A stretch of DNA of 32,094 nucleotides from positions 1-32,094 of the forward strand of contig CAZIDC010000002.1 in assembly GCA_964537885.1 (NCBI GenBank), read 5' to 3'. Below are positions 6,629-31,999 of this stretch, in pieces. The position numbers and the translations under genes are program-made. The DNA comes from an uncultured Syntrophaceae bacterium. GTDB taxonomy: Bacteria > Desulfobacterota > SM23-61. Each line of letters starts with the position of its first letter. Positions within the stretch are counted from its first letter, which is position 1. A model generated the notes under the pieces. The model was not told the origin of the DNA, searched no databases, and worked only from the letters and a program-made list of their open reading frames with translations.

Positions 6629-6629
6629 T

Positions 6630-6714
6630 TGACAAAATGTCACAAAGTTAAGCCTTTAAAGGTGATGATTGCCATTTTTTACAAAAATTTTAGAGCTTTT
6701 TTGTCAAATTGTCA
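6630..6714. promoter_or_regulatory. Candidate enhancer (UAS) half-sites for a sigma-54 activator
   Basis: Perfect palindrome TGACAaaaTGTCA at 6630-6642 and direct repeat TGTCAaatTGTCA at 6702-6714. They lie about 115-200 bp upstream of the -24 element at 6827. Confidence 0.35.
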
Positions 6715-6778
6715 TTGTTTTTACAACCGGGCGAACGGCCATCTTTTGGTGGTTATAACATTTGAAAAACGTATTTTA

Positions 6779-6791
6779 TATCAATAGGTTA
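6779..6791 (+). promoter_or_regulatory. IHF-like bending site
   Basis: TATCAATAGGTTA fits WATCAANNNNTTR exactly. It lies in an AT-rich tract between the repeats and the sigma-54 promoter. Confidence 0.35.
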
Positions 6792-6826
6792 TTATAGTGT
6801 CGCCCTTCTCCTCCCTTTGTTTTTTT

Positions 6827-6841
6827 TGGCACATCTTTTGC
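6827..6841 (+). promoter_or_regulatory. Sigma-54 (RpoN) -24/-12 promoter
   Basis: TGGCACatcttTTGC. GG is at 6828-6829 and GC at 6840-6841, exactly the canonical 12-nt register of TGGCACG-N4-TTGCW. It sits immediately downstream of a sigma-54 activator gene. Confidence 0.7.
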
Positions 6842-6931
6842 TTTATAATTAAGAAAAATTGTTAAACCCCGGAGGGACTTGATCTTCACAGGCCACGAAC
6901 GAGCGAACTCTCCTGGTCATCTGTGACTGGC

Positions 6932-6981
6932 AACCGAAGCAACAACCCTCCTCTATAAGATCGAATCCCTTCGGTTTTTTT
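6932..6981 (+). terminator. Hairpin plus U-run inside the sigma-54-driven leader (attenuator or sRNA terminator candidate)
   Basis: aaCCGAAG (6932-6939) pairs with CTTCGGtt (6969-6976) and is followed by a T7 run (6975-6981). The 29-nt loop contains CCTCCTC (6947-6953). The long loop makes this atypical for an intrinsic terminator. Confidence 0.3.
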
Positions 6982-7032
6982 GGAGGAGTTGTGGGAGTGC
7001 TGTTCTTCTCTAACTCCGCAGGGGGAGGAAAT

Positions 7033-7533
7033 GTGGATAAAAAAGTTATTTTAGTGGTGGATAATGAGGAGACGATTCGCGAAACCCTTCTGAAAATACT
7101 GGAACGGGAAGGCTATCAGGTGCTGGCTGCTGAGGACGGACAGGAAGCCCTGGAGGTCATTCGGGAACGTAAGGTCAATATAATCCTCTCCGATGTTTGT
7201 ATGCCAAGGATGGACGGCAATAAGCTGCTCAAGATGGCTAAAACGATCCTTCCCGATGTAGAAATTATCCTAATGACCGGCCACGGGAAGATGGAAATGG
7301 GTTTAGACGCTCTAAAAGAAGGCGCTTTTGATTTCATCCAGAAACCGTTTACCAAGTTGGCCTTGAGCAAGACCGTGAAGCATGCTCTGGAGAAGCAAGC
7401 CATGGCTGCGGAGATACGCTTCCTCAAAGAGCGGCTGCGGGAGCTGGTCGTGGAGATTATGGAAATCGTCGATGACCCCGCAGTCCATCGATTGGAATAT
7501 TCCCGGTCCCTGGGAGCTAATTCCGCCCCTTGA
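7033..7533 (+). CDS. Stand-alone receiver domain with an NtrC-type linker helix (truncated-activator-like response regulator)
   Basis: The sequence VDKKVILVVDNEE...LSDVCMPRMDG...KEGAFDFIQKPF is a canonical REC. It is followed by a coiled-coil-like linker (EKQAMAAEIRFLKERLREL), but no AAA+ or HTH domain. I prefer the GTG at 7033 because GGGGGAGG lies 4 nt upstream. Alternative starts are GTG 6991 and 6997, after GGAGGAG. Confidence 0.8.
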   Translation: MDKKVILVVDNEETIRETLLKILEREGYQVLAAEDGQEALEVIRERKVNIILSDVCMPRMDGNKLLKMAKTILPDVEIILMTGHGKMEMGLDALKEGAFDFIQKPFTKLALSKTVKHALEKQAMAAEIRFLKERLRELVVEIMEIVDDPAVHRLEYSRSLGANSAP

Positions 7534-9829: not shown

Positions 9830-11128
9830 ATGTCGGGTCATTCATCAATCTCCGCCCATCCGGGGAGTAGTCAAAATCGCGGTTGGATCGTTACCTTTGC
9901 CGGCACCGGGATTAATTTAGCCCTGGGAGTTCTTTACGCCTGGTCCATTATCTCCAACCAGATCGCCAAGGAATGGGGTTGGAGTGAAACGCAAACCGCC
10001 CTTCCTTACTCCATCGCCATCGCCGTCTTCGCCGTAGCCATGGTTCTCGCGGGAAGGCTGCAGGACAAGGTGGGACCGCGGCTTGTAGCTACGCTGGGAG
10101 GAGTTTTTTGCGGTGTTGGGTTCATTATATCCAGCCTGAGTCAATCCTTGGCCGGGCTGGTTATTGGCTTTGGGGTTTTGGCGGGAACAGGGATTGGTTT
10201 CGGCTATGCTTCGGCAACTCCGCCGGCGGTGAAATGGTTTCCCCCGGCGCGCACGGGTTTTATCGCCGGCCTGGTTGTAGCCGGGTTCGGATTGGCTTCC
10301 GTCTACATTGCTCCCATGGCCAATTATCTTCTGGGGAAGGTCGGAATTCAGAACACTTTCTTGCTCCTGGGCGTTGCTTTCCTGGCTGCAGTCGTACTCC
10401 TCGCCCAGTTGCTTAAAAATCCTCCGGCCGGATACAAAATCCAGGCTGGGCCTTCTATTCCAAAGGCTGAGGCCAAAGGGGAGGTGCCAACAGCTCCAAC
10501 CTCTATGGATTATGAATGGCATGAGATCATCCGCACCCCCCAATTCTATCTTCTATGGGTTATGTTTGTTTGCGCATCAGGTGCCGGGTTGATGATCATC
10601 GGCAAACTGGCCAGGATCGTCGACCTGCAGGCTGGCATTAAAGCCGGCTTTATCTTCGTGGCTTTGCTGGCTGTGGGGAATGCCGCGGGACGGATCGTCG
10701 CTGGCGTCCTTTCCGATAAAATCGGCCGCACCTGGACGATGTTTTCCGTCTTTGTTTTCCAGGCCGTGCTCATGTTTTTGCTGCGCGGTCTCAACACGTA
10801 TAGCACCCTCTTCTTGGCCTCGGTATTCATCGGGTTTAACTACGGGGCAAACCTCTCGGTCTTTCCTTCGGCTACGAAAGACTATTTTGGAATGAAAAAC
10901 TTCGGGGTTAATTACGGGTGCGTTTTTACCGCCTGGGGAGTGGGAGGAATTCTGGGTCCTTTACTCAGTGGCTGGATCTTCGACACTTCCCAAAACTTTA
11001 ATACCGCCTACCTCATCGCCTCCTTCTGCTTGCTTATTGCTGCGGGGTTAACCTTTGCCACCCATGCACCGAAAGCGAAGGCAGAGGAGAAAATTTTGAG
11101 AAAGGCGGCTTTACATAAGGAGTGCTAA
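9830..11128 (+). CDS. MFS transporter, oxalate/formate antiporter (OFA)-like family; likely a carboxylate carrier
   Basis: About 12 TM segments. The N-terminal region GWIVTFAGTGINLALGVLYAWSI...LPYSIAIAVFAVAMVLAGRLQDKVGPR is typical of OFA-type MFS proteins. AAGGAGG lies 8 nt upstream. Confidence 0.85.
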   Translation: MSGHSSISAHPGSSQNRGWIVTFAGTGINLALGVLYAWSIISNQIAKEWGWSETQTALPYSIAIAVFAVAMVLAGRLQDKVGPRLVATLGGVFCGVGFIISSLSQSLAGLVIGFGVLAGTGIGFGYASATPPAVKWFPPARTGFIAGLVVAGFGLASVYIAPMANYLLGKVGIQNTFLLLGVAFLAAVVLLAQLLKNPPAGYKIQAGPSIPKAEAKGEVPTAPTSMDYEWHEIIRTPQFYLLWVMFVCASGAGLMIIGKLARIVDLQAGIKAGFIFVALLAVGNAAGRIVAGVLSDKIGRTWTMFSVFVFQAVLMFLLRGLNTYSTLFLASVFIGFNYGANLSVFPSATKDYFGMKNFGVNYGCVFTAWGVGGILGPLLSGWIFDTSQNFNTAYLIASFCLLIAAGLTFATHAPKAKAEEKILRKAALHKEC

Positions 11129-17661: not shown

Positions 17662-18534
17662 TTGGCCAAGAAGAAAACTGTGCAGGATTTCATCTTGATG
17701 AAACAATCCGGCGAAAAGATCACTTTCCTCACCAGCTATGACTACCCTGCGGCCCATTTTGCGGAAAAAGCCGGAATGGATATGCTTCTGGTAGGAGACT
17801 CCTTGGGGATGGTGGTTTTGGGATATTCCACCACCGTCCCGGTTACCATGGAAGAAATGATTATCCACGCGAAGGCAGTCCGGCGGGGCGCCCCCAATAC
17901 TTTCGTCATCGGCGACATGCCCTTCATGTCTTATCAGGAATCGGGGGAACAGGCCGTACGCAACGCTGGAAGGTTTTACAAAGAGGCGGAGGTTGATGCG
18001 GTCAAGCTTGAGGGGGGAAGGCGGGTAGCCGATCGCATCAAGGCCATCGTCGATTCAGGCATGTCCGTTATGGGGCATATCGGATTAACTCCCCAGAGCT
18101 CCGGCCAGATGGGTGGCTTCAAAGTCCAAGGGAGGACCGCAGAAAGCGCCTGGGAACAGGTGCTTGATGCAAGGGCCGTGGAGGAAGCGGGGGCTTTTGC
18201 CATCCTCCTCGAGGCCGTCCCGCCAGAGGTGGGGAAGGGCATTACGGAATCCATAAAGATTCCCACCCTGGGAATCGGCGCTGGAGTTTATTGCGACGGC
18301 CAGGTGGTGGTTATCTCCGATTTACTGGGAGCCTTCGCGGACTTTACTCCCAAGTTCGTAAAACGCTATGCCAACATCGGTGAAACCATGTTCAAGGCCA
18401 TTGGCGAATATATTGCCGATGTGAAGGCCAAAGCGTTCCCCGAGGAGAAACATACCTACCGAATGCCTCCGGAGGAGATAACCAGGTTTCAGGGGATGCT
18501 CCGCAATAATCGTTTTAACCCGGATGATGCCTGA
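17662..18534 (+). CDS. panB: 3-methyl-2-oxobutanoate hydroxymethyltransferase (ketopantoate hydroxymethyltransferase)
   Basis: The sequence KITFLTSYDYPAAHFAEKAGMDMLLVGDSLGMVVLGYSTTVPVTMEEMIIHAKAVRRG...VIGDMPFMSYQ...VKLEGG is a typical PanB pattern. The TTG start lies 5 nt after GGAGGAGG. Confidence 0.93.
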   Translation: MAKKKTVQDFILMKQSGEKITFLTSYDYPAAHFAEKAGMDMLLVGDSLGMVVLGYSTTVPVTMEEMIIHAKAVRRGAPNTFVIGDMPFMSYQESGEQAVRNAGRFYKEAEVDAVKLEGGRRVADRIKAIVDSGMSVMGHIGLTPQSSGQMGGFKVQGRTAESAWEQVLDARAVEEAGAFAILLEAVPPEVGKGITESIKIPTLGIGAGVYCDGQVVVISDLLGAFADFTPKFVKRYANIGETMFKAIGEYIADVKAKAFPEEKHTYRMPPEEITRFQGMLRNNRFNPDDA

Positions 18535-19550
18535 TGGAGGGCATACCCAGTCGATCTACCTTGAAACCTCTTCTTCACGCTCAACTGCTCAACGGCCCTT
18601 TGGGGGACCCGGCCCTTTTCGTAGAGGTCCTCTGGGAACGCCGGGCCCTGCTTTTCGACCTGGGAGAACTGGGAGGGGTTCGGCCTTCCAAACTCATGAA
18701 GGTTTCCCATGCCTTTATCTCTCATACCCATATTGACCATTTCATCGGCTTTGATTCCCTCCTGCGCCTGATGCTGAACCGGGAAAAGATCCTGAAAATT
18801 TTCGGCCCCCCGGGTTTTCTTGCCAATATCCAGGGAAAACTTGCCGGTTATACCTGGAACCTGACTGCGGAATATCCTTTTTCCGTGCAAGCGGCCGAAG
18901 TTCATCCCGACAGAATTTTTACCAGGGTCTTCCATTGTCAGGAGCGTTTTCTACCGGGTGAGGAGAAGGAGGAGGACTTCCAGGGAATGTTGGAAGAGGA
19001 TTCTCAAATCCAGATTCGCGCCACCCATCTCGACCACCTTATTCCCTGCCTGGGTTTTGCCCTTCAGGAGCGATTTCACATCAACGTGCACAAGGATGAC
19101 CTTGCCCGGATGGGCCTGCCCGTAGGGCCATGGCTCAAGGAAATGAAAGAGGCGATCTGGAGGGGGGAGGGGAATGATTTTTGTCTGGTGGTTCCCTTAA
19201 AGGAAAAAGGGAAAGATGAAAAGGAAATGGCTCTGGGGGAGTTAAAAAAAAGCGTTACTTTTACCCCCGGCCAAAAAATCGCTTACGTCTCCGATTGCCA
19301 GTTCAGCGAAGAGAACCGCCAAAAGATCATTTCCTTGGCAGAGAAGGCCGATTTGTTTTTTTGCGAGGCAGCTTTTTTGGATGAAGACCGGAAGCGGGCG
19401 GAGGCAAGAGCCCACCTCACTGCTCGCCAGGCTGGAGAACTCGCCCGCGAGGCTGAAGTAAAAAACTTACAAATATTCCATTTTTCACCCAGGTACGAGA
19501 AGCAAGCCGATCGGCTCTACCGCGAAGCAGAAGAAGCCTTTAAAGGATGA
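18534..19550 (+). CDS. MBL-fold metallo-hydrolase, RNase Z/ElaC-like
   Basis: The HxHxDH motif is in FISHTHIDHFIGF, and the C-terminal FHFSPRY is typical of the RNase Z-like clade. The ATG overlaps the panB TGA by 1 nt. Confidence 0.75.
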   Translation: MEGIPSRSTLKPLLHAQLLNGPLGDPALFVEVLWERRALLFDLGELGGVRPSKLMKVSHAFISHTHIDHFIGFDSLLRLMLNREKILKIFGPPGFLANIQGKLAGYTWNLTAEYPFSVQAAEVHPDRIFTRVFHCQERFLPGEEKEEDFQGMLEEDSQIQIRATHLDHLIPCLGFALQERFHINVHKDDLARMGLPVGPWLKEMKEAIWRGEGNDFCLVVPLKEKGKDEKEMALGELKKSVTFTPGQKIAYVSDCQFSEENRQKIISLAEKADLFFCEAAFLDEDRKRAEARAHLTARQAGELAREAEVKNLQIFHFSPRYEKQADRLYREAEEAFKG

Positions 19551-19565
19551 CCTCTTTATTACAGA

Positions 19566-20030
19566 CTATTTCACCCGTGTCCAGTTGTTGGTTTTACCGA
19601 TCAGGGCAATACCGATGAAGCCCCGAACCTTCAAGTGATCGGGAGTTTCTAAAGTTATCTTGCATTTGTAGGTTTTTCCATCTCTGGGGTCGTATATAAA
19701 GCCGCCTTCCCAAAGATTCTCCCCGGCATAAGAAAACCCCCATACTAAGTTCATTCCCAGGATGGGGCGTTCCCTTTTTGAGGGATCTGGATTTTCGCGG
19801 TCTATCTTGGGTTTTCCGCCCATGTTTTTTGGGTCGTTGGCAGGATAATGGGGTTCTTTCAGCCAAACAATCTTCCCACAGTATTTGCCCTCGCAGGGGT
19901 AGATTTCAATCTGGGCTTCCTTTTCCTGATTCCACCATTGGGCCACGATGGCATCCTGGTTTTGGGCCTGGACGAATGAGACCCAAAAAAGAGCAGTTCC
20001 TATACCGATAATGAGAAAAAATTTTTTCAT
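19566..20030 (-). CDS. DUF2147 domain-containing secreted protein
   Basis: A signal peptide (MKKFFLIIGIGTALFWVSFVQA) is followed by the DUF2147 pattern (AQWWN...IEIYPCEGKYCGKIVWLK...DRENPDPSKRERPILGM...WEGGFIYDPRDGKTYKCKITL...LKVRGFIG). GGAGGGAGA lies immediately upstream. Confidence 0.85.
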   Translation of the reverse strand: MKKFFLIIGIGTALFWVSFVQAQNQDAIVAQWWNQEKEAQIEIYPCEGKYCGKIVWLKEPHYPANDPKNMGGKPKIDRENPDPSKRERPILGMNLVWGFSYAGENLWEGGFIYDPRDGKTYKCKITLETPDHLKVRGFIGIALIGKTNNWTRVK

Positions 20031-20300
20031 TCTCCCTCCTGCGGCGACGAGATAGAAGGCCTTGGGCCCGAGAAAGATTCAGTCCGGAGGCCTCCGTGCA
20101 ATCCGTGATGCCAAGCCGCCGGTCTTGCTGCCATCCGAGTTTCTGGGGAAAATATAACAGAAGATAGTGAGTTGAACAAGAGTTCTAACAATTAAAACTC
20201 AGCTTCATTATTTAGCGTCATGAGGACCTGCATCCTTACCCCGCCCGGAGGTGAGGCCAAGGTTGGGAAAGGAATCGGGGAGTTAAGAAGAAAACGATTA

Positions 20301-20330
20301 TTGACCGGCATAGTTCCCTTTCGCTATACT
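20301..20330 (+). promoter_or_regulatory. Sigma-70-type promoter candidate
   Basis: TTGACC (20301-20306), 18 nt spacer, TATACT (20325-20330), about 70 nt upstream of the ATG at 20403. Confidence 0.4.
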
Positions 20331-20402
20331 GAACTTGTATTGAGCTCCGATTTCATCAGTTGGCTATAGAAGGGGCCGGAATTTTTGCCAAGGGTATCCA
20401 GG

Positions 20403-22064
20403 ATGAACGACAAAAGAAAAACAAAAACCCAGCTCACCGAAGAGCTGGTGAGGCTGCGCCAACGGATTAAGGACCTGGAGCTATCGGTAAGCCGGGGAAA
20501 ACAAGCGGAAAAGTCCCTGCGGGAAACCGAGCAAAAATTTCAGCGGGTATATGATGAGGCGCCCTTCGGCTGCCATGAACTCAACACGGAGGGACAGATC
20601 ACCCGGGTCAATCGCAAGGAACTGGCAATGTTAGGATACACAGCCAGGGAGATGCTGGGCCGGCCGGTGTGGAGGTTTGTCCTGGAGGAGGAAATGACCC
20701 GGCGGATAATCCTGGCTAAGCTTTCGGGGGATGTGTCTTTTCACGAGACCTTTGAGCGGACCTACCGGCGGAAAGATGGAACAACATTACCGGTAATCGC
20801 CCAGGACCGAATCGTCTGGGAAAAGAGGAGGAAGATCACAGGAATCCGTTCCACCCTTGAAGATATCACTGAGCGGAGGCGGGCGGAAGAAGTCCTCCGC
20901 AAGAGTGAAGAACAGTTACGCCAGTGGCAAAAGGTGGAAGCGATTGGAAGGTTAGCAGGGGGGGTGGCCCATGATTTCAACAACCTTTTAATGACCATCA
21001 AGGGCTGCAGCGAACTTTTACTCGGCGAATTCGATGAACATGACCTACGACGGGAGGAGGTTGAAGAAATACGCAAGGCCGCAGAAAGGGCGACTTCCTT
21101 AACCCGGCAGCTCCTTGCTTTTGGGCGAAGGCAGGTTCTTCTGCCTCAAGTACTCAATCTGAACGACATCGTTGAAAACATGAATAGGATGCTTTCCCGC
21201 CTGATCGGTGAGGATATCCAACTGTTAACGGTTCTGGGACCAGACCTATGGCCGGTGAAGGTCGATCCAGGACAGATTGAGCAGGTCCTGATGAATCTGG
21301 CCGTGAATGGACGCGACGCAATGCCCAGAGGGGGCAAACTTACGATCGAGACTGCCAACAAGGAACTTGACGAAGACTATGCCCGACGTCATGTGGCCGT
21401 CAAACCCGGAGCATACGTATTGCTGGCAGTGAGTGATAACGGCTGTGGAATGGACAAGGAAACTCAATCGCATCTCTTCGAGCCTTTCTTCACTACCAAG
21501 GAACAGGGGAAAGGGACCGGGTTGGGTTTGTCGACAGTATATGGAATTATCAAACAAAGCGGCGGTAACATCTGGGTGTATAGTGAGTTAGGACAAGGGA
21601 CATCTTTCAAGATTTACCTGCCAACCGTAGAAGAGGAGGTTGAAACATACAAAACGGCTGCCCTTTTCTCCCCGCCCCCCGGCGGGACGGAAACCATCCT
21701 GCTGGTGGAAGATGAAGAGGCAGTGAGAACCATGATCAGCAAGGTCCTCCAGAGTGGCGGTTATACGGTGCTGGAAGCTCAGCACGGCGTCGAGGCCCTC
21801 CGGGTTTGCAAAAAGCATAGCGGTCCGATTCATTTGATGATTTCCGATGTTGTTATGCCCCAGATGAGTGGCCGGGAATTAGCCGGACGCCTGGCCTTGC
21901 GGCGGCCGGAGATGAGGGTGCTTTACATTTCCGGATATCCGGACAATGCCATCGTCCACCATGGAGTGCTGGAAACAGGGACGGCGTTTCTTCAGAAACC
22001 CTTCACCCTGAATGCCCTGGAGTACAAGGTGCGGGAAGTACTTGACGGACAGCAGCAGAGTTGA
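20403..22064 (+). CDS. Hybrid sensor histidine kinase/response regulator (coiled coil, PAS, HisKA, HATPase_c, REC), cytoplasmic
   Basis: A PAS domain is followed by the H-box (LAGGVAHDFNNLL), then the N-box (LMNLAVNGRDAM), G-boxes (DNGCGMD, GKGTGLGLS) and a C-terminal receiver (ILLVEDEE...LMISDVVMPQMSG...LQKPF). I prefer the ATG at 20403 over the track's TTG at 20385. Confidence 0.9.
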   Translation: MNDKRKTKTQLTEELVRLRQRIKDLELSVSRGKQAEKSLRETEQKFQRVYDEAPFGCHELNTEGQITRVNRKELAMLGYTAREMLGRPVWRFVLEEEMTRRIILAKLSGDVSFHETFERTYRRKDGTTLPVIAQDRIVWEKRRKITGIRSTLEDITERRRAEEVLRKSEEQLRQWQKVEAIGRLAGGVAHDFNNLLMTIKGCSELLLGEFDEHDLRREEVEEIRKAAERATSLTRQLLAFGRRQVLLPQVLNLNDIVENMNRMLSRLIGEDIQLLTVLGPDLWPVKVDPGQIEQVLMNLAVNGRDAMPRGGKLTIETANKELDEDYARRHVAVKPGAYVLLAVSDNGCGMDKETQSHLFEPFFTTKEQGKGTGLGLSTVYGIIKQSGGNIWVYSELGQGTSFKIYLPTVEEEVETYKTAALFSPPPGGTETILLVEDEEAVRTMISKVLQSGGYTVLEAQHGVEALRVCKKHSGPIHLMISDVVMPQMSGRELAGRLALRRPEMRVLYISGYPDNAIVHHGVLETGTAFLQKPFTLNALEYKVREVLDGQQQS

Positions 22065-22333
22065 GATGATTCCAGCAGGAAGCCCTCAAGACCATTCTCT
22101 TTAAACCTCCCCCATTGCGTATCCAGGGAATGCCTTTTATTCAGCTTTAAAAATCCCTTTTGAATGTGGACTGCGTTAACATTTGGCGGGAAAGCCCGGG
22201 GAGAAGTTTTGCTCTCCATCTTCTGCTGGGAAGGAAATATTTTTGCTCAAGTTTGCCAAAAATTAACCGATAAAATAATAGAAAAAACAAGAAGAAGCTA
22301 AAATAACGGATGGGAATCCACTAAAAACCTAAA

Positions 22334-22540
22334 ATGATTTCTGATGATATCTTGAACATTAAAGAAGTTTCCGATTATTTAAAAATTCCCGTATCGACGG
22401 TTTATAAATTGGCCCAGGATGGAAAACTCCCGGCCGTAAAAGTCGGGAAACACTGGAGGTTTTTAAAAAGAGACCTCGATCATCTCTTTAAGAAAAAGCC
22501 AGTGGAAGCCCTCCACGGACACCCCCCCCACAATCCCTAA
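22334..22540 (+). CDS. Small excisionase/MerR-superfamily HTH (HTH_17-like) DNA-binding protein
   Basis: LNIKEVSDYLKIPVSTVYKLAQDGKLPAVKVGKHWRFLKRDLDHLF matches the excisionase-family DNA-binding domain pattern (...T.Y.....G.[IL]P..K.G..WRF....[IL]..W). No SD is visible, and a C8 tract lies at 22522-22529. Confidence 0.7.
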   Translation: MISDDILNIKEVSDYLKIPVSTVYKLAQDGKLPAVKVGKHWRFLKRDLDHLFKKKPVEALHGHPPHNP

Positions 22541-22579
22541 GCTCCTTAAAGTATTGAAGTTTACTTTCCAATAAAAAAA

Positions 22580-22608
22580 TTGACAGAATAAAATAATTAT
22601 TCTAAAAT
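22580..22608 (+). promoter_or_regulatory. Sigma-70-type promoter candidate for the second activator gene
   Basis: TTGACA (22580-22585), 17 nt spacer, TAAAAT (22603-22608), about 100 nt upstream of the ATG at 22707. Confidence 0.5.
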
Positions 22609-22706
22609 ATCCTCAAAACCTTTCCTCTTGCCGGATATTTACGGGGGGTGGAAAAGAGGGATTTTTAGAAAGACCTTGGCTGTTATTTTTAGCGGGAAGA
22701 TGAAAA

Positions 22707-24092
22707 ATGGGTAGTGAGAAAATCTTGGTCATCGATGATTCGATGGAAATCCTTACCCTTTTCCCTGAGTATTTAAAAGGAGAAGGGTACGATGTTGAGA
22801 CATCGAGGGATGGAGCAAACGGCATCTCGATGATGGAGAATAAATTTTATGACTTGGTTCTTACTGACTTGAAAATGCCCGGTGTCGACGGGATGGGGGT
22901 TTTAAAATATATCAAAGACCATTCTTCCGATTCCATCTGCATCATTCTGACCGGGTACGGCACAGTCAAAAATGCGGTCGAGGCGATCAAATTGGGCGCT
23001 TTTGATTACCTGACCAAACCCGTGAAGCTGGATGAGATAACGATTGTCTTGAAAAGAGCGTTAGAATATCGTGATTTGAAGCGGGAGAATATAAACCTGC
23101 GGAATCAGCTAAAAAAAAAATACCGCTTTGAAAATATTATCGGCAACCATGAAAAGATGGAGAAGATATTCGAGGTTATAGAGAAAGTAGCGGATTCAGA
23201 TAGTACCATTTTAATTTTAGGAGAAAGCGGAACCGGAAAGGAGTTAATTGCCAAGGCCATCCATTACAACAGTTATCGACGGGAGAAACCTTTTATTCCT
23301 GTAAATTGCGCGGCCATCCCGGGCGAACTTTTGGAGAGTGAGTTGTTCGGCCATGAAAAGGGGGCTTTTACCAATGCCATCCGCACCCGCATCGGTCGCT
23401 TCGAACTCGCCAACGGGGGAACTGTGTTCCTGGATGAAATCGGCGACATGACCCCGGTTCTCCAGAGTAAATTATTGAGAGTCTTGCAGGAGAGACAATT
23501 TGAACGGATCGGAGGGGTTAAAACAATCAAGACGGACATCCGAGTCATTGCCGCTACGCACCAGGATTTGAAACTGGCGGTGCAGCAGAAAAGATTCCGG
23601 GAAGATTTATATTATCGATTGAATGTTATCCCCATCAATATTCCCCCCCTAAGGGAGCGGAAATCGGATATTTCCCTCCTGGCCCTCCATTTTTTAGAGC
23701 ATTTTAACGGGAGCAAGAAGAAAAAGATCAAAGGAATTAACAATGAAGCTATGGATCGGTTGATGCAGTATGATTGGCCCGGCAACGTTCGGGAACTTGA
23801 AAACACCATTGAGCGGGCTGTCATTCTATTGGATGCGGATATCATTACCCCAGAAGATTTACCCCCAAAATTCCAGGATTTTTCCAAGTCAGGCTCGCCC
23901 GCTCCGCTGGAAATTCCCGAAGAGGGAATATCCCTGGACACAGTGGTTAACGAATTTGAGAAGAAATTAATCCTTCAGGCGCTTATCAAAACCGGGTGGG
24001 TTAAAAATAAGGCCGCCCAACTTTTAAATCTAAATCGAACGACCTTGATCGAGAAGATAAAACGCCAAAATCTCCAGCCTCCCAGCCCCTAA
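22707..24092 (+). CDS. Sigma-54-dependent response regulator (NtrC family; FlrC/FleR/FlgR-like by context)
   Basis: The receiver has an intact phospho-acceptor context (ILVIDDS...LVLTDLKMPGVDG). The AAA+ domain carries GESGTGKE, ELFGHEKGAFTNA (GAFTGA variant) and VFLDEIGD. The C-terminal Fis HTH reads NKAAQLLNLNRTTLIEKIK. Confidence 0.93.
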   Translation: MGSEKILVIDDSMEILTLFPEYLKGEGYDVETSRDGANGISMMENKFYDLVLTDLKMPGVDGMGVLKYIKDHSSDSICIILTGYGTVKNAVEAIKLGAFDYLTKPVKLDEITIVLKRALEYRDLKRENINLRNQLKKKYRFENIIGNHEKMEKIFEVIEKVADSDSTILILGESGTGKELIAKAIHYNSYRREKPFIPVNCAAIPGELLESELFGHEKGAFTNAIRTRIGRFELANGGTVFLDEIGDMTPVLQSKLLRVLQERQFERIGGVKTIKTDIRVIAATHQDLKLAVQQKRFREDLYYRLNVIPINIPPLRERKSDISLLALHFLEHFNGSKKKKIKGINNEAMDRLMQYDWPGNVRELENTIERAVILLDADIITPEDLPPKFQDFSKSGSPAPLEIPEEGISLDTVVNEFEKKLILQALIKTGWVKNKAAQLLNLNRTTLIEKIKRQNLQPPSP

Positions 24093-24113
24093 GCTTTCGG
24101 ATCACAGCAGCTC

Positions 24114-24147
24114 TGTCAAACCATTGACTCTGAATTCGTCAAGTGAC
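24114..24147. promoter_or_regulatory. Candidate enhancer (UAS) inverted repeats
   Basis: tGTCAAaccaTTGAC (24114-24128) and GTCAagTGAC (24138-24147), about 90-120 bp upstream of the -24 element at 24235. Confidence 0.35.
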
Positions 24148-24195
24148 TGAAATCCAGCCCAATCCTATCTCCGCATAATATTTAAAGTAAAATAA

Positions 24196-24208
24196 TATCA
24201 ATAAGTTA
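24196..24208 (+). promoter_or_regulatory. IHF-like bending site
   Basis: TATCAATAAGTTA fits WATCAANNNNTTR exactly. It is 12/13 identical to the box at 6779-6791. Confidence 0.35.
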
Positions 24209-24234
24209 ATGACAATAAAAGATCATCTTTATAT

Positions 24235-24250
24235 TGGCATGACCATTGCA
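24235..24250 (+). promoter_or_regulatory. Sigma-54 (RpoN) -24/-12 promoter
   Basis: TGGCATgaccaTTGCA. GG is at 24236-24237 and GC at 24248-24249, in the canonical 12-nt register. It lies directly downstream of a sigma-54 activator gene and upstream of the FliN-like gene. Confidence 0.7.
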
Positions 24251-24411
24251 CAAAAGATCATAAGAAATAGGCGAATGGTGGAAAGAAAAATATTAATAGG
24301 TATTGATGTCTTTATTCCGGGACAAGATAAAAGGATAGGCAGAATCAAATATTAAATAGCTTTAAGGTCCAACCGATTTATTTTTTTGAATTCGCAACCC
24401 ATTAAAAAACG

Positions 24412-24834
24412 ATGGAAAAATTATTATCTCAAGACGAAATTGATGCCTTACTCCGGGGGGTAGAGAATGGCCAAGTTGAAACCGCTGCCGAGCCAAGGGG
24501 AGGAAAGAAAGGAATGAACGGAGGAGGGTCTTCCTCCAAAGAGGAACCAACAGTTCCCGGTTCAAAAGAGATTCCCAACCTGGATTTCATCTTGGACATC
24601 CCCTTAGAAGTTTCAGTAGAGTTGGGCCGGGCGAAGATGTTGATCAGCGATCTTTTGCAATTGGGGCAGGGTTCGGTCATCGAGCTGACCAAATTGGCCG
24701 GAGAGCCGCTGGAAATATTCGTCAACCAAAAGCTCATCGCTCGAGGAGAAGTCGTGGTCTTAAACCGGAAGTTGGGGATCCGCATGACTGACATCATCAG
24801 CCCGATAGAACGGGTTCGACAATTGAACGCGTGA
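24412..24834 (+). CDS. fliN: Flagellar motor switch protein FliN-like (SpoA domain) with an N-terminal LSQDEIDALL peptide
   Basis: The C-terminal ~85 aa (ILDIPLEVSVELGRAKMLISDLLQLGQGSVIELTKLAGEPLEIFVNQKLIARGEVVVLNRKLGIRMTDI) are a typical FliN/SpoA domain. The N-terminus is MEKLLSQDEIDALL, the FliM/FliY-type EIDALL motif. No SD is present (aaaaaacgATG). Confidence 0.85.
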   Translation: MEKLLSQDEIDALLRGVENGQVETAAEPRGGKKGMNGGGSSSKEEPTVPGSKEIPNLDFILDIPLEVSVELGRAKMLISDLLQLGQGSVIELTKLAGEPLEIFVNQKLIARGEVVVLNRKLGIRMTDIISPIERVRQLNA

Positions 24835-24977
24835 AGAATTGGATGATCTGGCCTGAAGTTTAACGGGCTAGGGGAAGATGATGCCGCAAATTGCGGAAGA
24901 TATTTTGCTGGCCATTAGGGACGGGTGGCCAATCTGGTTGTTAAAACGGTCCAAGGGAAGAAATGGGGTCGATTTAT

Positions 24978-25916
24978 ATGGATCAAGCAGGCGGATTGGG
25001 CAGGGTAATGGAAAAACCTTCCAGAAAAGCGGGGATTTCAATTCCACCCCCCGCCGCAATAAAGAGCCTTCCTCTTGGCAAAGGGCCAAGGGTAATAACG
25101 GTCAGCAGTGGAAAGGGAGGAGTTGGAAAAACCAACGTGGTTGCCAACCTGGCCTTTGCCTTAACGCAAATGGCCAAGAGGGTTTTGGTTTGGGACGCTG
25201 ATTTGGGGTTGGCCAATATCGACATCCTTTTAGGGTTAACTTCTCGTTACACGATTGAACATCTTTTAAAACTTAAAAAACCAGTTTCCGATATTTTGAT
25301 CAAAGGCCCCGGGGGAATGTCCATTCTGCCAGCCAGTTCCGGTGTCCTGGAAATGCTGGATTTAACGGAAAGTCAGAAAATTTTTCTTTTAAATGAGCTG
25401 GATATTCTTGCCGAAACCATTGACTTTTTGCTGATCGATACCGGGGCCGGGATCTCTTCTAACGTTATCTTTTTCAATATGGCCGCGGAGGAATCGATTG
25501 TCCTGGCCACCCCGGAACCGACTTCGATCACCGATGCCTATGCTTTAATTAAGGTCTTAGCACAAAAATATCGGAAGAAAAAATTCACCATCCTGGTGAA
25601 TTCTGCCCAAAATAGCCAGGAGGCCAAGGAGGTTTTCAAAAAAATAAGCATGGTTGCCGATCGCTTTCTGGGTAATTTAGCCATAGATTATTTAGGCTTT
25701 ATTCCCTTCGATGAAAAACTTCCTCTTGCCGTAAAACATCAACGACCGGTTTTAGAGATTTATCCCCAGGCGCCTTCCAGTCGCAGTTTTGTGGAGGTAG
25801 CCAGAATCCTCGCCGAAAAACCATTGCCCGAAGCATCCACAGGTAATGTCCGATTTTTCTGGGGAAAAATTTTTCACTGTCACCAGGCAGAAGAAAAAGA
25901 AAGGGGGGCTGATTGA
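24978..25916 (+). CDS. flhG: MinD/ParA-family ATPase FlhG (YlxH/FleN-like)
   Basis: The deviant Walker A is SSGKGGVGKT. The N-terminal MDQAGGLGR resembles the DQAxxLR activator helix of FlhG, which argues for the ATG at 24978 rather than the track start at 24963. The C-terminal amphipathic VRFFWGKIF looks like a membrane-targeting helix. Confidence 0.85.
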   Translation: MDQAGGLGRVMEKPSRKAGISIPPPAAIKSLPLGKGPRVITVSSGKGGVGKTNVVANLAFALTQMAKRVLVWDADLGLANIDILLGLTSRYTIEHLLKLKKPVSDILIKGPGGMSILPASSGVLEMLDLTESQKIFLLNELDILAETIDFLLIDTGAGISSNVIFFNMAAEESIVLATPEPTSITDAYALIKVLAQKYRKKKFTILVNSAQNSQEAKEVFKKISMVADRFLGNLAIDYLGFIPFDEKLPLAVKHQRPVLEIYPQAPSSRSFVEVARILAEKPLPEASTGNVRFFWGKIFHCHQAEEKERGAD

Positions 25917-26704
25917 AAGCCAGAGCCATTCCTTACAAAACATTTTGTCCCAACGTGGTAGCCACCTCGCCGCCAAACGACGAGTCCTTGAATCGCGAGG
26001 AAATGATCCTAAAGTATACGCCGTTGATTAAGTATATCGCTCACCGCCTGGCCATGCGTCTGCCCCCCCATATTGCCGTGGAAGACTTGATCAGCGCCGG
26101 GGTATTTGGGTTAATGGATGCCCTGAACAAGTTTGATCCGGCCAGGAAAGTGCAGTTTAAGACCTTTGCCGAGTTCCGGATAAAAGGGGCCATGTTGGAT
26201 GAACTGAGGTCGCTGGATTGGGTTTCTCGCTCCGTAAGGCAAAAGGCAAACCAATTGGAAAAAGCTTTTTTTAATATAGAGAAAAAAAAGGGGCGGGCGG
26301 CCGAGGATGAAGAGGTGGCCCAGGAATTGGGCCTATCCCTGGATGAATACTACAAAATGGTAAACGAAATTCACGGAGTTTTTTTGCTGGATGTGCCGCG
26401 ACTGCGGATAAAAATTCCCAACCTTCCCGAAGAAGATTTAATCGATCTACTCGTCGCCGAAAAAGAAAACCATCCGTTTCATCTACTCAGTCTGGCGGAA
26501 ATAAAAAAGGTTTTAACCCAAGCGATTGAAGGACTCACGCCTAAAGAAAAAACCGTGATTTCACTCTATTACTATGAGGAATTAACCTTGAAGGAAATCG
26601 GGGAGATATTGGGGTTTACTGAATCCCGGATATGCCAGATTCACACAAAATCTGTTTTAAAACTGCGGTTGAAAATACGGCATTACATGAAAGATGGGCG
26701 GTAA
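25913..26704 (+). CDS. fliA: RNA polymerase sigma factor FliA/WhiG (sigma-28)
   Basis: Region 2 is YTPLIKYIAHRLAMRLPPHIAVEDLISAGVFGLMDALNKFDP...FKTFAEFRIKGAMLDELR. Region 4.2 is LTLKEIGEILGFTESRICQIHTKSVLKLR. The start is uncertain: TTG 25913 overlaps the flhG stop by 4 nt, and ATG 26003 is an alternative. Confidence 0.9.
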   Translation: MKARAIPYKTFCPNVVATSPPNDESLNREEMILKYTPLIKYIAHRLAMRLPPHIAVEDLISAGVFGLMDALNKFDPARKVQFKTFAEFRIKGAMLDELRSLDWVSRSVRQKANQLEKAFFNIEKKKGRAAEDEEVAQELGLSLDEYYKMVNEIHGVFLLDVPRLRIKIPNLPEEDLIDLLVAEKENHPFHLLSLAEIKKVLTQAIEGLTPKEKTVISLYYYEELTLKEIGEILGFTESRICQIHTKSVLKLRLKIRHYMKDGR

Positions 26705-26751
26705 GGGCTGATCTGATCGGGGATTTTTTCTCGGGTTCCAATGGACAAATT

Positions 26752-26777
26752 AAAAAGCCGGTCAAGACCGGCTTTTT
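26752..26777. terminator. Bidirectional rho-independent terminator between convergent fliA and flgM
   Basis: AAAAA-GCCGGTC-aa-GACCGGC-TTTTT. The hairpin overlaps the last codons of flgM. Confidence 0.6.
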
Positions 26778-27118
26778 AATTTCTTAGGCCTGGGGGGGGA
26801 AAATCCGCGATTCATCAACAGGATGGATTCTTTTAGCATTTTATCGGCAATGGCTTCAGCCTTGATATGATAGTCTCCTTCGGCGATTGCTTTTTTCAGG
26901 ACAGCCACTCGCCCAGACCGCCCTTCCGGGAGCAAATCAAGAAGGGCACGAATTCTTTTAATCTCCCTTGATTGATCCGAAGGTTTGATTTTTTTTAGCG
27001 AGAAAATCTGATTCTTAACTTTTTGAGGGATACGGGTTTTATCCGCAGGGTTGGATTTATTGGCCCGATTGATCAGGGCTATATAATTCATTTTTTTATT
27101 GCCGTCTGAAAGCTTCAT
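26762..27118 (-). CDS. flgM: Anti-sigma-28 factor FlgM-like
   Basis: A 118 aa, largely polar protein. Its C-terminal part (RVAVLKKAIAEGDYHIKAEAIADKML) matches the conserved FlgM sigma-28-binding region (...KV..[IL]K..I..G.Y.[IV]D...IA.K[ML]). It is convergent with fliA, and AAGGA lies 9 nt upstream. Confidence 0.7.
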   Translation of the reverse strand: MKLSDGNKKMNYIALINRANKSNPADKTRIPQKVKNQIFSLKKIKPSDQSREIKRIRALLDLLPEGRSGRVAVLKKAIAEGDYHIKAEAIADKMLKESILLMNRGFSPPRPKKLKSRS

Positions 27119-27737
27119 GAGATTTTGTCCTTATAGCAAGTCCTCATATGACCCTGGTTTCATTATTGCAAAAATGATTTCCTTTAACGGTCCGGCTTCG
27201 GCGATTGAAGAGAAATGGACACCCTCTCCCCAGAATCGTTTTGGTAGGAATGCTTACCTTTTTTCTGGGGGCCCGAGATCCCATCGACAACTGCTGAATA
27301 TATATCGTGAAAACCTGCTGGGTTTGGAAGGTATTTATAACCATAATCTTTTGTTTTCATAAAACTTGTCGTCAGACCCTTAAAAAACTTTAGGCTTTTT
27401 AAGTTATTCGTTGTTTTATGCAGGCCTTTTCATAAACCGCATTAGAATTTTCATCCGTGATTTACCCCGTTGGGAGAGAAGACGGCGAACCTTCTTGCAT
27501 AACCGGTCCTTTCTCATAAATAACTTAGCAAAACTTTAATAGGTTTTCGTTCTATAGACTGACCCAATCCTTGCCTCCCGTAAAGGAGAATTAGTTCTAT
27601 AAAGGACGGGAATATCATTGCAATTGTTCCCCCCATTATGATATAGGGGTTTTTAAAGGGGGATTTTTTAGCTAAGAAGAATCTAAGGGGTTTGGGCGCA
27701 AGACATTCTGCCGGTGCGGAACGAAGGAGGTTTTTCG

Positions 27738-28520
27738 ATGGGGTTACCAAAAAATTTTCCAACCAGGGGAAAACCTCGTTCCTCCCAACGGCCTGAATTT
27801 ATAACCGCTTTCATCGAAAGGTATCGATATTCGGCGCTGGGGGAATTGGTCAAAGGGATCATCCATAATCTGAATGGATCTCTCCAGATATTATCCATGC
27901 AGATGGAACTTCTCGAGAGAATGCTGGTTCGGGAAGGGGAAAAGGTTCCCCCGGCCATTCAAGAACAGATGCGCCGGTGTCTGGAACAACTCGAAAAATT
28001 CAATGGACACCTAAAGGTTTTAATCGAGAAAGGGGTCCATGATGAAGTAGATACTCCCCAGATCATTCAACTCAACGATCTTTTAGAAGAAGAACTTTCC
28101 CTCTTGCACCACAACTTATTTTTTAAACATCAAATCCAGGTGCAAAAAATTCTGGCCCCCGACTTGCCTTATCTGCAAGGGTATTACGTTGACTTCAGTC
28201 AGGGGCTATTGAATCTGATCCATAATGCGGTTGAAGCGATGGAAGAAGCCAGCCTTAAAAAGCTTACCCTGGTTACGGAAAAGAAGGGCGATCAAGTTCA
28301 GATTGTCATTAAAGACACGGGATGCGGGATCTCCCAAAAAATCAGGGACCACCTGTTTCAGCCCTTTGTTACCAGTAAGGGCGGGAAGCATCGGGGGTTA
28401 GGATTATTTATTTCGCGGGAGCTGTTGGCTCGTTACGGAGCTTCCTTCTCTTTCTCCTCGAAGAAGGGAGAAACGACTTTTACGGTTCATTTCCCGACCT
28501 CACGCAATCGGGGGATTTGA
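27738..28520 (+). CDS. Soluble histidine kinase without a recognisable sensor domain (HisKA-like plus HATPase_c)
   Basis: The H-box is LGELVKGIIHNLNGSLQIL, the N-box LLNLIHNAVEAM, and the G-boxes DTGCGIS and HRGLGLFIS. No TM segment is present. The ATG at 27738 lies 7 nt after GAAGGAGG; the track start at 27714 is less likely. Confidence 0.8.
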   Translation: MGLPKNFPTRGKPRSSQRPEFITAFIERYRYSALGELVKGIIHNLNGSLQILSMQMELLERMLVREGEKVPPAIQEQMRRCLEQLEKFNGHLKVLIEKGVHDEVDTPQIIQLNDLLEEELSLLHHNLFFKHQIQVQKILAPDLPYLQGYYVDFSQGLLNLIHNAVEAMEEASLKKLTLVTEKKGDQVQIVIKDTGCGISQKIRDHLFQPFVTSKGGKHRGLGLFISRELLARYGASFSFSSKKGETTFTVHFPTSRNRGI

Positions 28521-28536: not shown

Positions 28537-28581
28537 GCGGGTTCTCTTTCTGGGGCCCGCTTTTTTCCACTCTTCGAGTGG
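28537..28581 (+). terminator. Terminator-like tandem hairpins after the kinase gene
   Basis: GCGGG (28537-28541) pairs with CCCGC (28556-28560), followed by T6 (28561-28566). A second hairpin, CCACTC-ttc-GAGTGG, lies at 28567-28581. Confidence 0.45.
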
Positions 28582-30925: not shown

Positions 30926-31411
30926 TCATTGGCCCTGCTTTTTCATCTCCCGTATCTTTTCCAGAGTATCCCTGTAAATACCTTCTTTCAAGGGATTCAG
31001 TTCAATAGCCTTCCTGGCCAGGCCTTCGGCCTGGTCCAGATTTTCCTTTTTCGTATAATACAGCCAGGCCAGGTTGTTATAGGCATCGGCATTGTTGGAT
31101 TCTTTCCGGATGGCCTTTTGGTAATATTCTTCCGCCTTATCCATCTCCTTTTTCTGGAAATAGGCATTGCCAAGGTGCAGGTAAGCCAGGGGAAGCTTTT
31201 TGGCGGCCAGTTGATATTCTTTTAGGGCGGCATCGAGTTCACCCTGTCTTTCGTAGGCTACGCCGAGGTTCAAATGTTCTTGGGGAGTGAGCGGGTCCTT
31301 GAGAATAATAATTCTCGGTAGGGCGCAGCCGGAAAAAAACAGCAGGACGCAAAGCGCAAAGCGCAGAGCGTAAAAATTTCCTTGCTTATGGAGAAACCGG
31401 GTTCTGATCAT
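30926..31411 (-). CDS. TPR-repeat lipoprotein
   Basis: The lipobox is LLFFSGC. At least three TPR units are present (HLNLGVAYERQGELDAALKEYQLA, YLHLGNAYFQKKEMDKAEEYYQKAI, AYNNLAWLYYTKKENLDQAEGLARKAI). The ATG at 31411 forms an ATGA overlap with the upstream peptidase stop. Confidence 0.8.
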   Translation of the reverse strand: MIRTRFLHKQGNFYALRFALCVLLFFSGCALPRIIILKDPLTPQEHLNLGVAYERQGELDAALKEYQLAAKKLPLAYLHLGNAYFQKKEMDKAEEYYQKAIRKESNNADAYNNLAWLYYTKKENLDQAEGLARKAIELNPLKEGIYRDTLEKIREMKKQGQ

Positions 31412-31956
31412 TGGGGAGTTACCCGAAGAGTCCAGAATTTTGCCCGCTCCCACGTTTTTAAAAAATTATCCAGGGGAATAAACTTATGTTTTTCTTTCCC
31501 GGAATTGGCAATAATGCCCCCCTTGGCGTAGCCCACCACCACCATAAAATGGTCCTGCTCATATACCCAAAACCCGTAATCGACCAGGACGATGAGAGGA
31601 TTTCGGGAATGAATGTTCCGCTGCAAGTCATCCAGATTCCCCTTAAACTGGACGGCTTTCAGCCCCTTCCTCTCCGCATAAAAAATCATATCGATGTCCA
31701 GAGTGCCTTTGGCCTTGGCGCTGAATATCTCAGCGGCGATGTCCGCCGGGGAAACCTGGACCCCCCAGTAATTTAACACGCCGGCAAGCGCGGCCGGGCC
31801 GCATTGATAGGCCTCCTGGGGGTAGAAAGGAACGTTGGGGATAGTGGGGAAGGTTCCGCCTTCCTTTAGGGGAGAAGGCCCAGCGCAGGAAAAGAGCAAA
31901 GAAATTAGCAGAAAAAAAAAGAAGGGGCAACCCTTAACGAGGCCGCCCGTTTTCAT
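31408..31956 (-). CDS. C39-like cysteine peptidase lipoprotein (stand-alone bacteriocin-processing-peptidase fold)
   Basis: The lipoprotein signal is MKTGGLVKGCPFFFFLLISLLFSCAG. The catalytic Cys context is QEAYQCGPAALAGVLNYWG and the His context is HFMVVVGY, typical of Peptidase_C39-like domains. An alternative TTG start lies at 31971. Neither start has a clear SD. Confidence 0.78.
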   Translation of the reverse strand: MKTGGLVKGCPFFFFLLISLLFSCAGPSPLKEGGTFPTIPNVPFYPQEAYQCGPAALAGVLNYWGVQVSPADIAAEIFSAKAKGTLDIDMIFYAERKGLKAVQFKGNLDDLQRNIHSRNPLIVLVDYGFWVYEQDHFMVVVGYAKGGIIANSGKEKHKFIPLDNFLKTWERAKFWTLRVTPQ

Positions 31957-31999
31957 TAATTTATTTGCCAAGGGACCGATTCAACAAGCGGAGGTTTGT

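Follow-up and report, generated by a model that had tools for sequence, protein, structure and literature searches.

Among the Legionella, the non-flagellated L. israelensis and L. londiniensis keep fleQ, fleN, fliA and flgM, L. longbeachae keeps fliA, fleN, fleR/fleS and flgD, and L. oakridgensis keeps fliA and flgM, its flgM being sigma-28-dependent and its FlgM suggested to be degraded rather than secreted (PMC5655016). Such regulator-only remnants of non-flagellated Legionella are the closest precedent for the locus described here, an AT-rich block at positions 22065-28520 of a 32,094-nucleotide stretch of DNA (the window; contig CAZIDC010000002.1 of assembly GCA_964537885.1) from an uncultured bacterium. 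Judged by its sequence, the lineage is Thermodesulfobacteriota, with Syntrophaceae as the nearest named relatives in databases. We propose that the block is a relic of a flagellar cluster, vertically inherited and reduced in place, and not a product of transfer (probability about 0.85-0.9). This reading draws on deletion scars, on synteny with relatives, on synonymous divergence (dS) that is equal in the block and its flanks, on purifying selection and on conserved promoter motifs. It describes a known phenomenon, of the Legionella type, in another phylum, and adds to it an NtrC-type activator, extra survivors, legible breakpoints and independent repeats.

Legionella and the window share the loss of structural genes and the retention of a sigma-54 activator, FleN/FlhG, sigma-28 and its anti-sigma factor. 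In both groups the loss has occurred several times, flgM lies under a sigma-28 promoter (a predicted one in the window), and control of FlgM has to be non-secretory. The window differs in its phylum (Thermodesulfobacteriota, not Gammaproteobacteria), in its activator, which is a phosphorylatable NtrC-type response regulator and not of the FleQ type, and in also keeping FliN and one kinase. Further, its scars, comprising fragments of fliL, fliM and flhF with an enhancer and promoter, are still legible at their original site, and its case is known from sequence alone. As in a relic of the Legionella type, the activator, FlhG, FliA and FlgM are unbroken, with ratios of nonsynonymous to synonymous substitution rates (dN/dS) of 0.11-0.38 against the related loci L023 and L006.

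Two other described systems bear comparison. In the polar flagellates Pseudomonas and Vibrio, FleQ-FleN (FlrA-FlhG) and FliA-FlgM form feedback loops (PMC13556257; PMC6424431). There, as by prediction in the window, the activator drives a sigma-54 operon containing flhG/fleN and fliA, and FliA drives flgM; the order flhF-flhG-fliA is likewise common to these genera and to the flagellated relatives of the window organism. By contrast with the loops so described, the activator of the window, here called EBP2, has a normal receiver and a GAFTNA loop, and the window lacks FlhF as well as the structural targets. In Geobacter, FgrM, an enhancer-binding protein dependent on RpoN, is essential for flagellum synthesis, and in G. 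sulfurreducens PCA that activator is missing while structural genes remain (PMC8844916). Like EBP2, FgrM is a sigma-54 activator, from a related 'deltaproteobacterial' group, and the two are likened here by role, EBP2 standing at the head of the flagellar cluster in flagellated relatives. G. sulfurreducens PCA is the opposite of the window, where the activator stays and the structural genes are gone.

The block contains seven genes:

22334-22540, + strand: HTH_17/excisionase-family DNA-binding protein of 68 aa (PF12728, 61.6 bits; TIGR01764, 54 bits)
22707-24092, + strand: EBP2, NtrC-type response regulator and sigma-54 activator (receiver PF00072, 95 bits; Sigma54_activat PF00158, 248 bits; HTH_8)
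24412-24834, + strand: fliM'-fliN open reading frame (FliMN_C PF01052, 87 bits; TIGR02480, 109 bits against a cut-off of 84)
24963-25916, + strand: flhG, a fleN-type MinD/ParA ATPase (Pfam ParA, CbiA and AAA_31)
25913-26704, + strand: fliA, sigma-28 (TIGR02479, 264 bits against a cut-off of 190; Sigma70 r2, r3 and r4)
26762-27118, - strand: flgM, anti-sigma-28 (PF04316, 47.9 bits; TIGR03824, 49.8 bits against a cut-off of 40.75)
27714 or 27738 to 28520, + strand: histidine kinase core without a sensor domain (HATPase_c, 73 bits)

An initial annotation had listed regulators and one FliN-like protein as the sole contents of the block, and Pfam and NCBIfam profiles verify all seven genes. Scans of the 32-kb window with the same two collections bear out its further statement that there is no flagellar structural, export, motor or chemotaxis gene, apart from fliN itself. 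The FliN-like assignment was right as to family and too cautious otherwise, as the protein is a true FliN with an in-frame remnant of FliM in front of it. The start contexts quoted for block genes were correct on re-reading. The kinase probably begins at ATG 27738, which has GGAGG in front, rather than at GTG 27714, and the spacer between flgM and the kinase is 595 bp up to the GTG and 619 bp up to this ATG, in agreement with the non-coding spacer of about 620 bp reported earlier. The native start of flhG is probably ATG 24978 (MDQA...).

In flagellated relatives, these genes belong to one large cluster. FlhG has thousands of homologues; beyond its clade, the best occur at 62-78% identity in metagenome-assembled genomes (MAGs) of Syntrophaceae, Thermodesulfobacteriota and 'Deltaproteobacteria'. 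In every long contig examined (L002, L004, L005, L007, L008, L011 and L012), flhG-fliA lies inside a full flagellar locus with the order flgE-fliL-fliM-fliN-fliO-P-Q-R-flhB-flhA-flhF-flhG-fliA, after which come genes for rod, ring and hook-associated proteins. In the window, as in all full loci, fliA comes directly after flhG. Orthologues of EBP2 are 76-84% identical to it, and those in L018 and L020 (79-82%) stand at the head of the flagellar cluster, where they are followed by a second, flrC-like activator and by flgB, flgC, fliE, fliF, fliG, fliH, fliI and fliJ. Before EBP2, these two loci carry Lactamase_B_2, DUF2147 (- strand), a PAS-HisKA-HATPase-receiver hybrid kinase and HTH_17. The left flank of the window (18534-22540) has the same gene order at 67-91% amino acid identity, with the exception of a divergent HTH_17 in L018 (40%). 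At the other end, L023, L103, L089, L091 and the full locus L011 all carry flgM where the window does, and on the same strand. From the EBP2 stop to the flhG start there are about 22.3 kb of flagellar genes in the relatives (L018 and L101, overlapping on one contig), against 870 bp in the window.

This short interval retains recognisable pieces of what the relatives carry there:

24115-24153, + strand: upstream activator sequence of the fliL operon, with the palindrome GTCAAACCATTGAC at 24115-24128 and a second site GTCAAGTGACTGAAAT
24235-24250, + strand: retained sigma-54 promoter of the fliL operon, TGGCATGACCATTGCA, a perfect match to TGGCAY-N5-TTGCW
24316-24411, + strand: non-coding remnant of the fliL 3' end (~95 nt), now with stop codons, recognised by alignment to relatives
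24412-24495, + strand: fliM 5' end, first 28 codons, with N-terminus MEKLLSQDEIDALLRGVENGQVETAAEP against MEKILSQDEIDALLKGIENGNVETTTPEP in the FliM of relatives
codons 29-34 of the same reading frame, + strand: old fliM-fliN intergenic ribosome-binding site GCCAAGGGGAGGAAAGAAAGGA, read in frame
from Met35 (24514), + strand: intact FliN of native length, 106 aa, with its own GGAGG
24888-24962, + strand: remnant of the flhF 3' end (last ~70 nt), running into flhG, found by blastn

The enhancer element GTCAA-N4-TTGAC lies ~120 nt upstream of the fliL sigma-54 promoter in the full loci L002, L004, L005, L007, L008 and L011, and L101 has a close variant. It is also found in L023, L006, L089 and L091, and as the variant GTCAA-N4-ATGAC in L013, L019, L009 and L010. 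The promoter TGGCATGACCATTGCA is 1 nt off the fliL promoter of L002, L005 and L007, and is kept in L006, L023 and L103. The fliL remnant matches the last ~95 nt of fliL and the start of fliM in L002, L004 and L008 with 82-85 identities of 123-125, and tblastx against L002 and L008 gives E = 3e-4. For flhF, blastn aligns window 24888-24990 with L007 9934-10037 (the end of flhF and start of flhG) at 76% identity over 104 nt (E = 3e-15), and L005, L011 and L008 match this remnant too. Since the 870 bp are legible as pieces of enhancer and promoter, fliL, fliM, fliN and flhF, the sequence points to at least four deletions between EBP2 and flhG. Gauged in reference relatives, these would measure ~13 kb, 0.4 kb, 0.9 kb and 6.4 kb. 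When the 595-bp flgM-kinase spacer and the other spacers were compared by tblastx and blastn with all fetched loci, only the fliL and flhF fragments were recovered.

The N-terminal peptide of FliM is a docking site for CheY and FlhG. Residues 38-140 of the fliM'-fliN reading frame are 71-75% identical to the FliN of relatives. Across the last 88 codons of the frame, the ratio of nonsynonymous to synonymous differences per site (pN/pS) is 0.13-0.17, against ~1.0-1.3 in the 34 FliM-derived and linker codons (comparison with L006, small counts). A pN/pS of ~1 in codons 1-34 makes the FliM-derived extension look like a neutral scar. A functional FliM-FliN fusion was considered and downgraded because these codons are neutral, Met35 has its own GGAGG, and the gene call of the source contig (P0242) begins at Met35. 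The working product is probably the 106-aa FliN.

The cluster would thus have lost about 21 kb of flagellum-building genes in several deletions. On the left, these would have removed the flrC-like activator and all genes from there up to and including flgE, along with most of fliL and nearly all of fliM. Further along, the lost pieces would be fliO through most of flhF, the genes 3' of fliA, and, by the kinase, a response-regulator gene together with flbD-motA-motB. The survivors would be EBP2, the enhancer and sigma-54 promoter of the fliL operon, fliN, flhG, fliA, flgM, HTH_17 and one kinase.

The block and its flanks share one history. From Lactamase_B_2, or the hybrid kinase, through the right flank, the window is collinear at 94-96% nucleotide identity with two related loci, L023 (10.6 kb) and L103 (14.7 kb of a 21.8-kb contig), and L006 keeps EBP2, the spacer, fliM'-fliN and flhG at 84-89%. 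Measured against L023, dS is 0.11-0.15 for the genes of the block (0.19 for the 68-codon HTH_17) and 0.12-0.13 for the flank genes LactB2, hybrid kinase and MFS384. Genes of the block and genes of the flanks have their nearest homologues in one and the same group of Thermodesulfobacteriota/Syntrophaceae MAGs. All seven reading frames are unbroken in the window, L023 and L103, as are the covered genes in L006. Every surviving gene of the block is under purifying selection: dN/dS against L023 is 0.14 for HTH_17, 0.15 for EBP2, 0.27 for the fliN frame, 0.21 for FlhG, 0.24 for FliA, 0.38 for FlgM and 0.39-0.42 for the kinase, with most flank genes at 0.15-0.17, and against L006 it is 0.11 for EBP2, 0.25 for the fliN frame and 0.27 for FlhG.

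Judging from their gene content, other lineages have independently cut the cluster down to a core of enhancer, promoter, flhG and fliA. L013 has the window-type left flank, HTH_17, EBP2 and flhG-fliA, without fliN; its FlhG shares 87.6% identity with the FlhG of the full locus L011, but only 66% with that of the window. L089 and L091 carry Lactamase_B_2, DUF2147, the hybrid kinase, HTH_17, EBP2, flhG, fliA, flgM (- strand) and the kinase. In L019 and L102, HTH_17, EBP2, flhG and fliA occur amid other surroundings, and L009 and L010 have flhG-fliA only, between cobalamin/TonB-type genes and hydrogenase genes. In all these reduced loci, the fliL enhancer and sigma-54 promoter lie just upstream of flhG. 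A single clade of 'orphan' FlhG-FliA paralogues was rejected, as reduced and full-locus forms are interleaved in neighbour-joining trees and identity matrices.

The N-terminal motif of FlhG has changed in most of the reduced loci. According to one study, DQAxxLR is required to activate the GTPase of FlhF (bioRxiv 10.1101/2022.03.19.484964). FlhG begins with MDQAEGLR in six full loci. The window (DQAGGLGR) and L006 (DQAEGLPT) have altered versions of the motif, L019, L089 and L091 have lost it, L009 and L010 carry a mutated form, and in L013 it is out of frame. All compared loci retain the Walker A motif and C-terminal amphipathic helix of FlhG.

One MAG, VGSF01, contains both the full locus L008 (VGSF01000079.1) and a separate flhG-fliA pair, L010 (VGSF01000047.1). 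This pair carries the fliL enhancer and promoter and lies between cobalamin/TonB-type and NiFe-hydrogenase genes, and the two FlhGs are 86% identical. The double set stems from a recent duplication, or else the bin mixes two organisms.

Two further observations concern the relatives. At L018 6995-8601, L020 8142-8669, L013 7094-7381 and L089 8851-9309 there are small genes of PilZ, HDOD or FliL-like type, placed in the interval from HTH_17 to EBP2 or close to fliA. The HTH_17-EBP2 spacer of the window is 166 bp long and lacks them, which hints at a lost cyclic di-GMP input. Many genes are fragmented in L004 and L101, and flhG of L013 is split by a frameshift (9880-10045) between its MDQAEGLR N-terminus and its P-loop. 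These breaks are probably errors of long-read assembly, and calls of pseudogenes in such MAGs are consequently unsafe.

The proteins of the block resemble their counterparts in flagellated relatives. In EBP2, the context of the receiver aspartate (LTDLKMP) and the GAFTNA loop are both common to flagellated orthologues. The receiver is a standard one of the NtrC type, and not the FleQ-type N-terminal domain that lacks a phospho-acceptor aspartate and belongs to regulators governed by FleN and cyclic di-GMP in place of phosphorylation, so that EBP2 resembles a master regulator in position and NtrC in type. FlhG has a deviant Walker A motif, SSGKGGVGKT, and a C-terminal FFWGKIF helix, as in the FlhG of full loci. 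It scores under the MinD equivalog cut-offs, and the NCBIfam scan gave no match to an FlhG/FleN-specific model. The kinase aligns to the dimerisation and histidine phosphotransfer (DHp) and catalytic domains of AtoS and NtrB.

Besides the fliL promoter, the block carries the following predicted signals:

22247-22273, + strand: sigma-28-type promoter TCAAGTTT-N11-ACCGATAA, ~60 nt upstream of HTH_17 (motif scan)
22580-22608, + strand: sigma-70-like match TTGACA-17-TAAAAT upstream of EBP2, a predicted promoter (11/12 in a consensus scan)
26747-26782, no strand: perfect 17-nt inverted repeat with a 2-nt loop between the convergent fliA and flgM, 100% complementary, a likely bidirectional terminator
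27366-27392, - strand: sigma-28-type promoter TAAAGTTT-N11-GACGACAA, ~250 nt upstream of flgM (motif scan)
28537-28560, + strand: hairpin and T run resembling a terminator, past the kinase, where the AT-rich block ends on the right (9 pairs in a terminator scan, of which 6 are G-C)

A scan with TAAAGTTT-N11-GCCGATAA, allowing up to 3 mismatches, finds 2 sites in 32 kb, against 0.25 expected. Both sigma-28-type sites are kept in L023, where the HTH_17 site has 1 mismatch. Counterparts of the HTH_17 site occur in the flagellated L018 and L020 and in the reduced L013 and L089, and flgM of L011 has the comparable site TAAAGAAT-N11-GACGATAA. Between the promoter and flgM, a 58-aa reading frame (27184-27360, - strand) is apparently shifted by an extra A in L023, and is therefore probably non-coding or decaying.

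Conservation of the promoters for both sigma-54 and sigma-28 makes it probable that the circuit remains wired. EBP2 would be made from the sigma-70-type promoter, would probably be controlled by phosphorylation, and would bind the GTCAA-N4-TTGAC enhancer. Together with sigma-54, it would drive fliN-flhG-fliA. FliA would then transcribe flgM, HTH_17 and a non-flagellar regulon elsewhere in the genome, and FlgM would restrain FliA. With no export apparatus for the secretion of FlgM, relief would have to come by another route, such as proteolysis. FlhG may feed back on EBP2 as FleN acts on FleQ. The binding of EBP2 to the enhancer, its restraint by FlhG and the non-flagellar targets of FliA are inferred from the FleQ-FleN and FliA-FlgM paradigms (PMC13556257; PMC5655016). 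The block had been described as a laterally acquired or separately evolving sigma-54 to sigma-28 cassette; its regulators are indeed compositionally distinct and such wiring is plausible given the sites at 24235, 22247 and 27392, while the lateral origin does not stand.

The kinase can be placed through its homologues (46-64% identical), which were drawn from 80 metagenome loci. In 51 of these 80, motB (- strand) comes after the kinase homologue. Beyond motB, where the contig reaches, lie motA and flbD (both - strand), and the gene ahead of the kinase usually encodes a 250-aa receiver protein. Some of these loci have FlaF and FlbT close by. The receiver and motB-motA-flbD neighbours are gone in the window clade, L089, L090, L091 and L093, and the spacers of the window hold no detectable trace of the lost response-regulator gene. 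By this comparison of sequences, the window kinase appears to be the survivor of a response regulator-kinase-motB-motA-flbD neighbourhood. In L025, L026 and L029 (~9371-10858 in L025), flgM (+ strand) lies directly upstream of the kinase homologue, with no other flagellar gene within reach. Beside the flgM-kinase pair in L025 and L026 lies what looks by sequence like a housekeeping cluster of ffh, rimM, trmD and rplS. The adjacency of flgM and the kinase is met in three different layouts.

Elsewhere in the window, 30926-31971 (- strand) carries overlapping genes for a C39-family peptidase (PA2778-like) and a tetratricopeptide repeat protein, and this pair is kept in L024 and L103. At 1085-2620 (+ strand) lies a gene for a 511-aa protein with weak matches to a membrane region like that of the major facilitator superfamily (21.6 bits, cut-off 33.4) and a spermidine-synthase-like domain (24.8 bits, cut-off 22.9).

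The composition of the block sets it apart from its flanks, which are here the remainder of the window. Its GC content is 0.442, against 0.525 in the left flank and 0.508 in the right, and returns to 0.51-0.53 past the hairpin at 28537-28560. GC at third codon positions (GC3) is 0.45-0.57 (mean 0.51) in the seven genes of the block and 0.54-0.70 (mean 0.62) in 18 flank genes (Mann-Whitney p = 8e-6). The difference persists when the flank set is confined to its six genes for two-component proteins and activators (p = 6e-4). Between the tetranucleotide profiles of block and flanks the L1 distance is 0.29, 2.4 times the highest value (0.12) among 32 equal-sized flank windows. The initial annotation had recognised this AT-rich block from six hand counts of G+C, all of them exact (20, 20 and 26 of 60 inside; 36, 35 and 37 of 60 outside), and the shift from background is real.

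Part of the drop in GC is due to spacers and extra non-coding scar DNA, as the non-coding share of the block is 24%, with a GC of 0.39 against 0.458 in coding sequence; the rest is a deficit in GC3. In the flagellated L018 and L020, GC3 of EBP2 is close to that of the adjoining hybrid kinase (0.81 and 0.80; 0.74 and 0.72), against 0.54 and 0.61 in the window, 0.50 and 0.62 in L013 and 0.68 and 0.74 in L089, which are reduced. The deficit possibly reflects relaxed selection on codon usage after loss of the flagellum, although the pattern is uneven across these three reduced lineages and two flagellated relatives. Another long AT-rich spacer lies outside the block, at 6629-6990 (GC 0.38), 3' of a first sigma-54 activator gene (5174-6628) and 5' of a 180-aa response-regulator gene (6991-7533). 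It contains a second perfect sigma-54 promoter, TGGCACATCTTTTGCT (6827-6842, + strand), which appears to belong to an unrelated sigma-54 unit.

Several points weigh against a flagellar relic reduced in place with its circuit intact. All promoter assignments are motif matches with conservation, and so are predictions only. The GC3 deficit is explained only in part, its tie to the reduced state being uneven. The dN/dS of flgM and the kinase (0.38-0.42) is above that of the flanks, which suggests that some relaxation is under way. DQAxxLR is unbroken in the close relatives L023 and L103, and one MAG (VGSF01) has an orphan flhG-fliA pair in addition to a full locus. Finally, the gene inventory covers the 32-kb window and short related contigs, and a full flagellar set might lie elsewhere in the genome, which we consider improbable.

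Were that so, the organism would still be flagellated through another gene set, and the locus would be a degenerate or specialised second regulatory copy. The FlhG motifs of L023 and L103 and the double set of VGSF01 accord with such a copy, as does the strong conservation of FliN though FliM and FliG are absent from the locus. However, the locus in the window is, by position, the orthologue of the flagellated relatives' main cluster, and the stator genes beside the kinase have gone too. The window and L006 have both departed from DQAxxLR, and the loci of VGSF01 could stem from two organisms. A second copy is, like a distant full set, improbable.

A functionless remnant, its genes on their way to loss, is likewise improbable. 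Non-coding scars, the neutral FliM-derived extension, the degraded FlhF-activating motif of FlhG, the raised dN/dS of flgM and the kinase, the frameshifted small reading frame upstream of flgM and the disappearance of fliN from other reduced lineages all accord with decay. Yet the seven genes are intact across close relatives, their dN/dS is well under 1 (EBP2 at 0.11-0.15, the FliN domain at a ratio of 0.13-0.17), promoters and enhancer are conserved, and one core of enhancer, promoter, flhG and fliA has been kept by several lineages independently.

A laterally acquired, self-contained sigma-54/sigma-28 cassette, the origin first proposed for the block, fits its significant compositional shift (GC, GC3 and tetranucleotide) and the excisionase-family HTH at its left edge, and is nonetheless so unlikely that we reject it, given the synteny of block and left flank with full flagellar loci, the internal scars of a flagellar operon, the equal dS, the shared nearest homologues, and an orthologous site that in L018 and L020 is occupied by the activator and a full cluster. 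Profile scans of the window found no integrase or transposase, and further scans no tRNA, relevant Rfam match or flanking repeat; the initial annotation, too, had seen no integrase, tRNA or convincing flanking repeats. The HTH_17 gene had been offered as a hint of mobility, but its orthologues lie between the hybrid kinase and EBP2 in L013, L018, L020, L089 and L102. With this constant site beside the hybrid kinase in flagellated relatives, at up to 91% identity, it is no marker of a mobile element.

Read as a flagellar relic, what looked like a foreign island becomes a dated and legible record of the dismantling of a flagellar supercluster, giving the pieces lost, the breakpoints and the pieces that selection holds. 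It also carries two cautions for annotation. Calls of FliN, FlhG, FliA and FlgM in MAGs need not mean motility, and a compositional island need not mean transfer.

Legionella and several lineages of Thermodesulfobacteriota keep the same regulators, which argues for duties beyond flagellum building. We give roughly even odds to a circuit that is still working and has a non-flagellar purpose. More tentatively, the module may have a second job in these anaerobes, in which a sigma-28 regulon serves some other cell-surface, polarity or lifestyle trait. It is similarly conceivable, if short of an even bet, that FlhG has been freed from FlhF and that FliN is kept as a partner protein and not as a motor part. 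Such loci would offer a natural system for studying non-flagellar targets of sigma-28 and FlhF-independent roles of FlhG.

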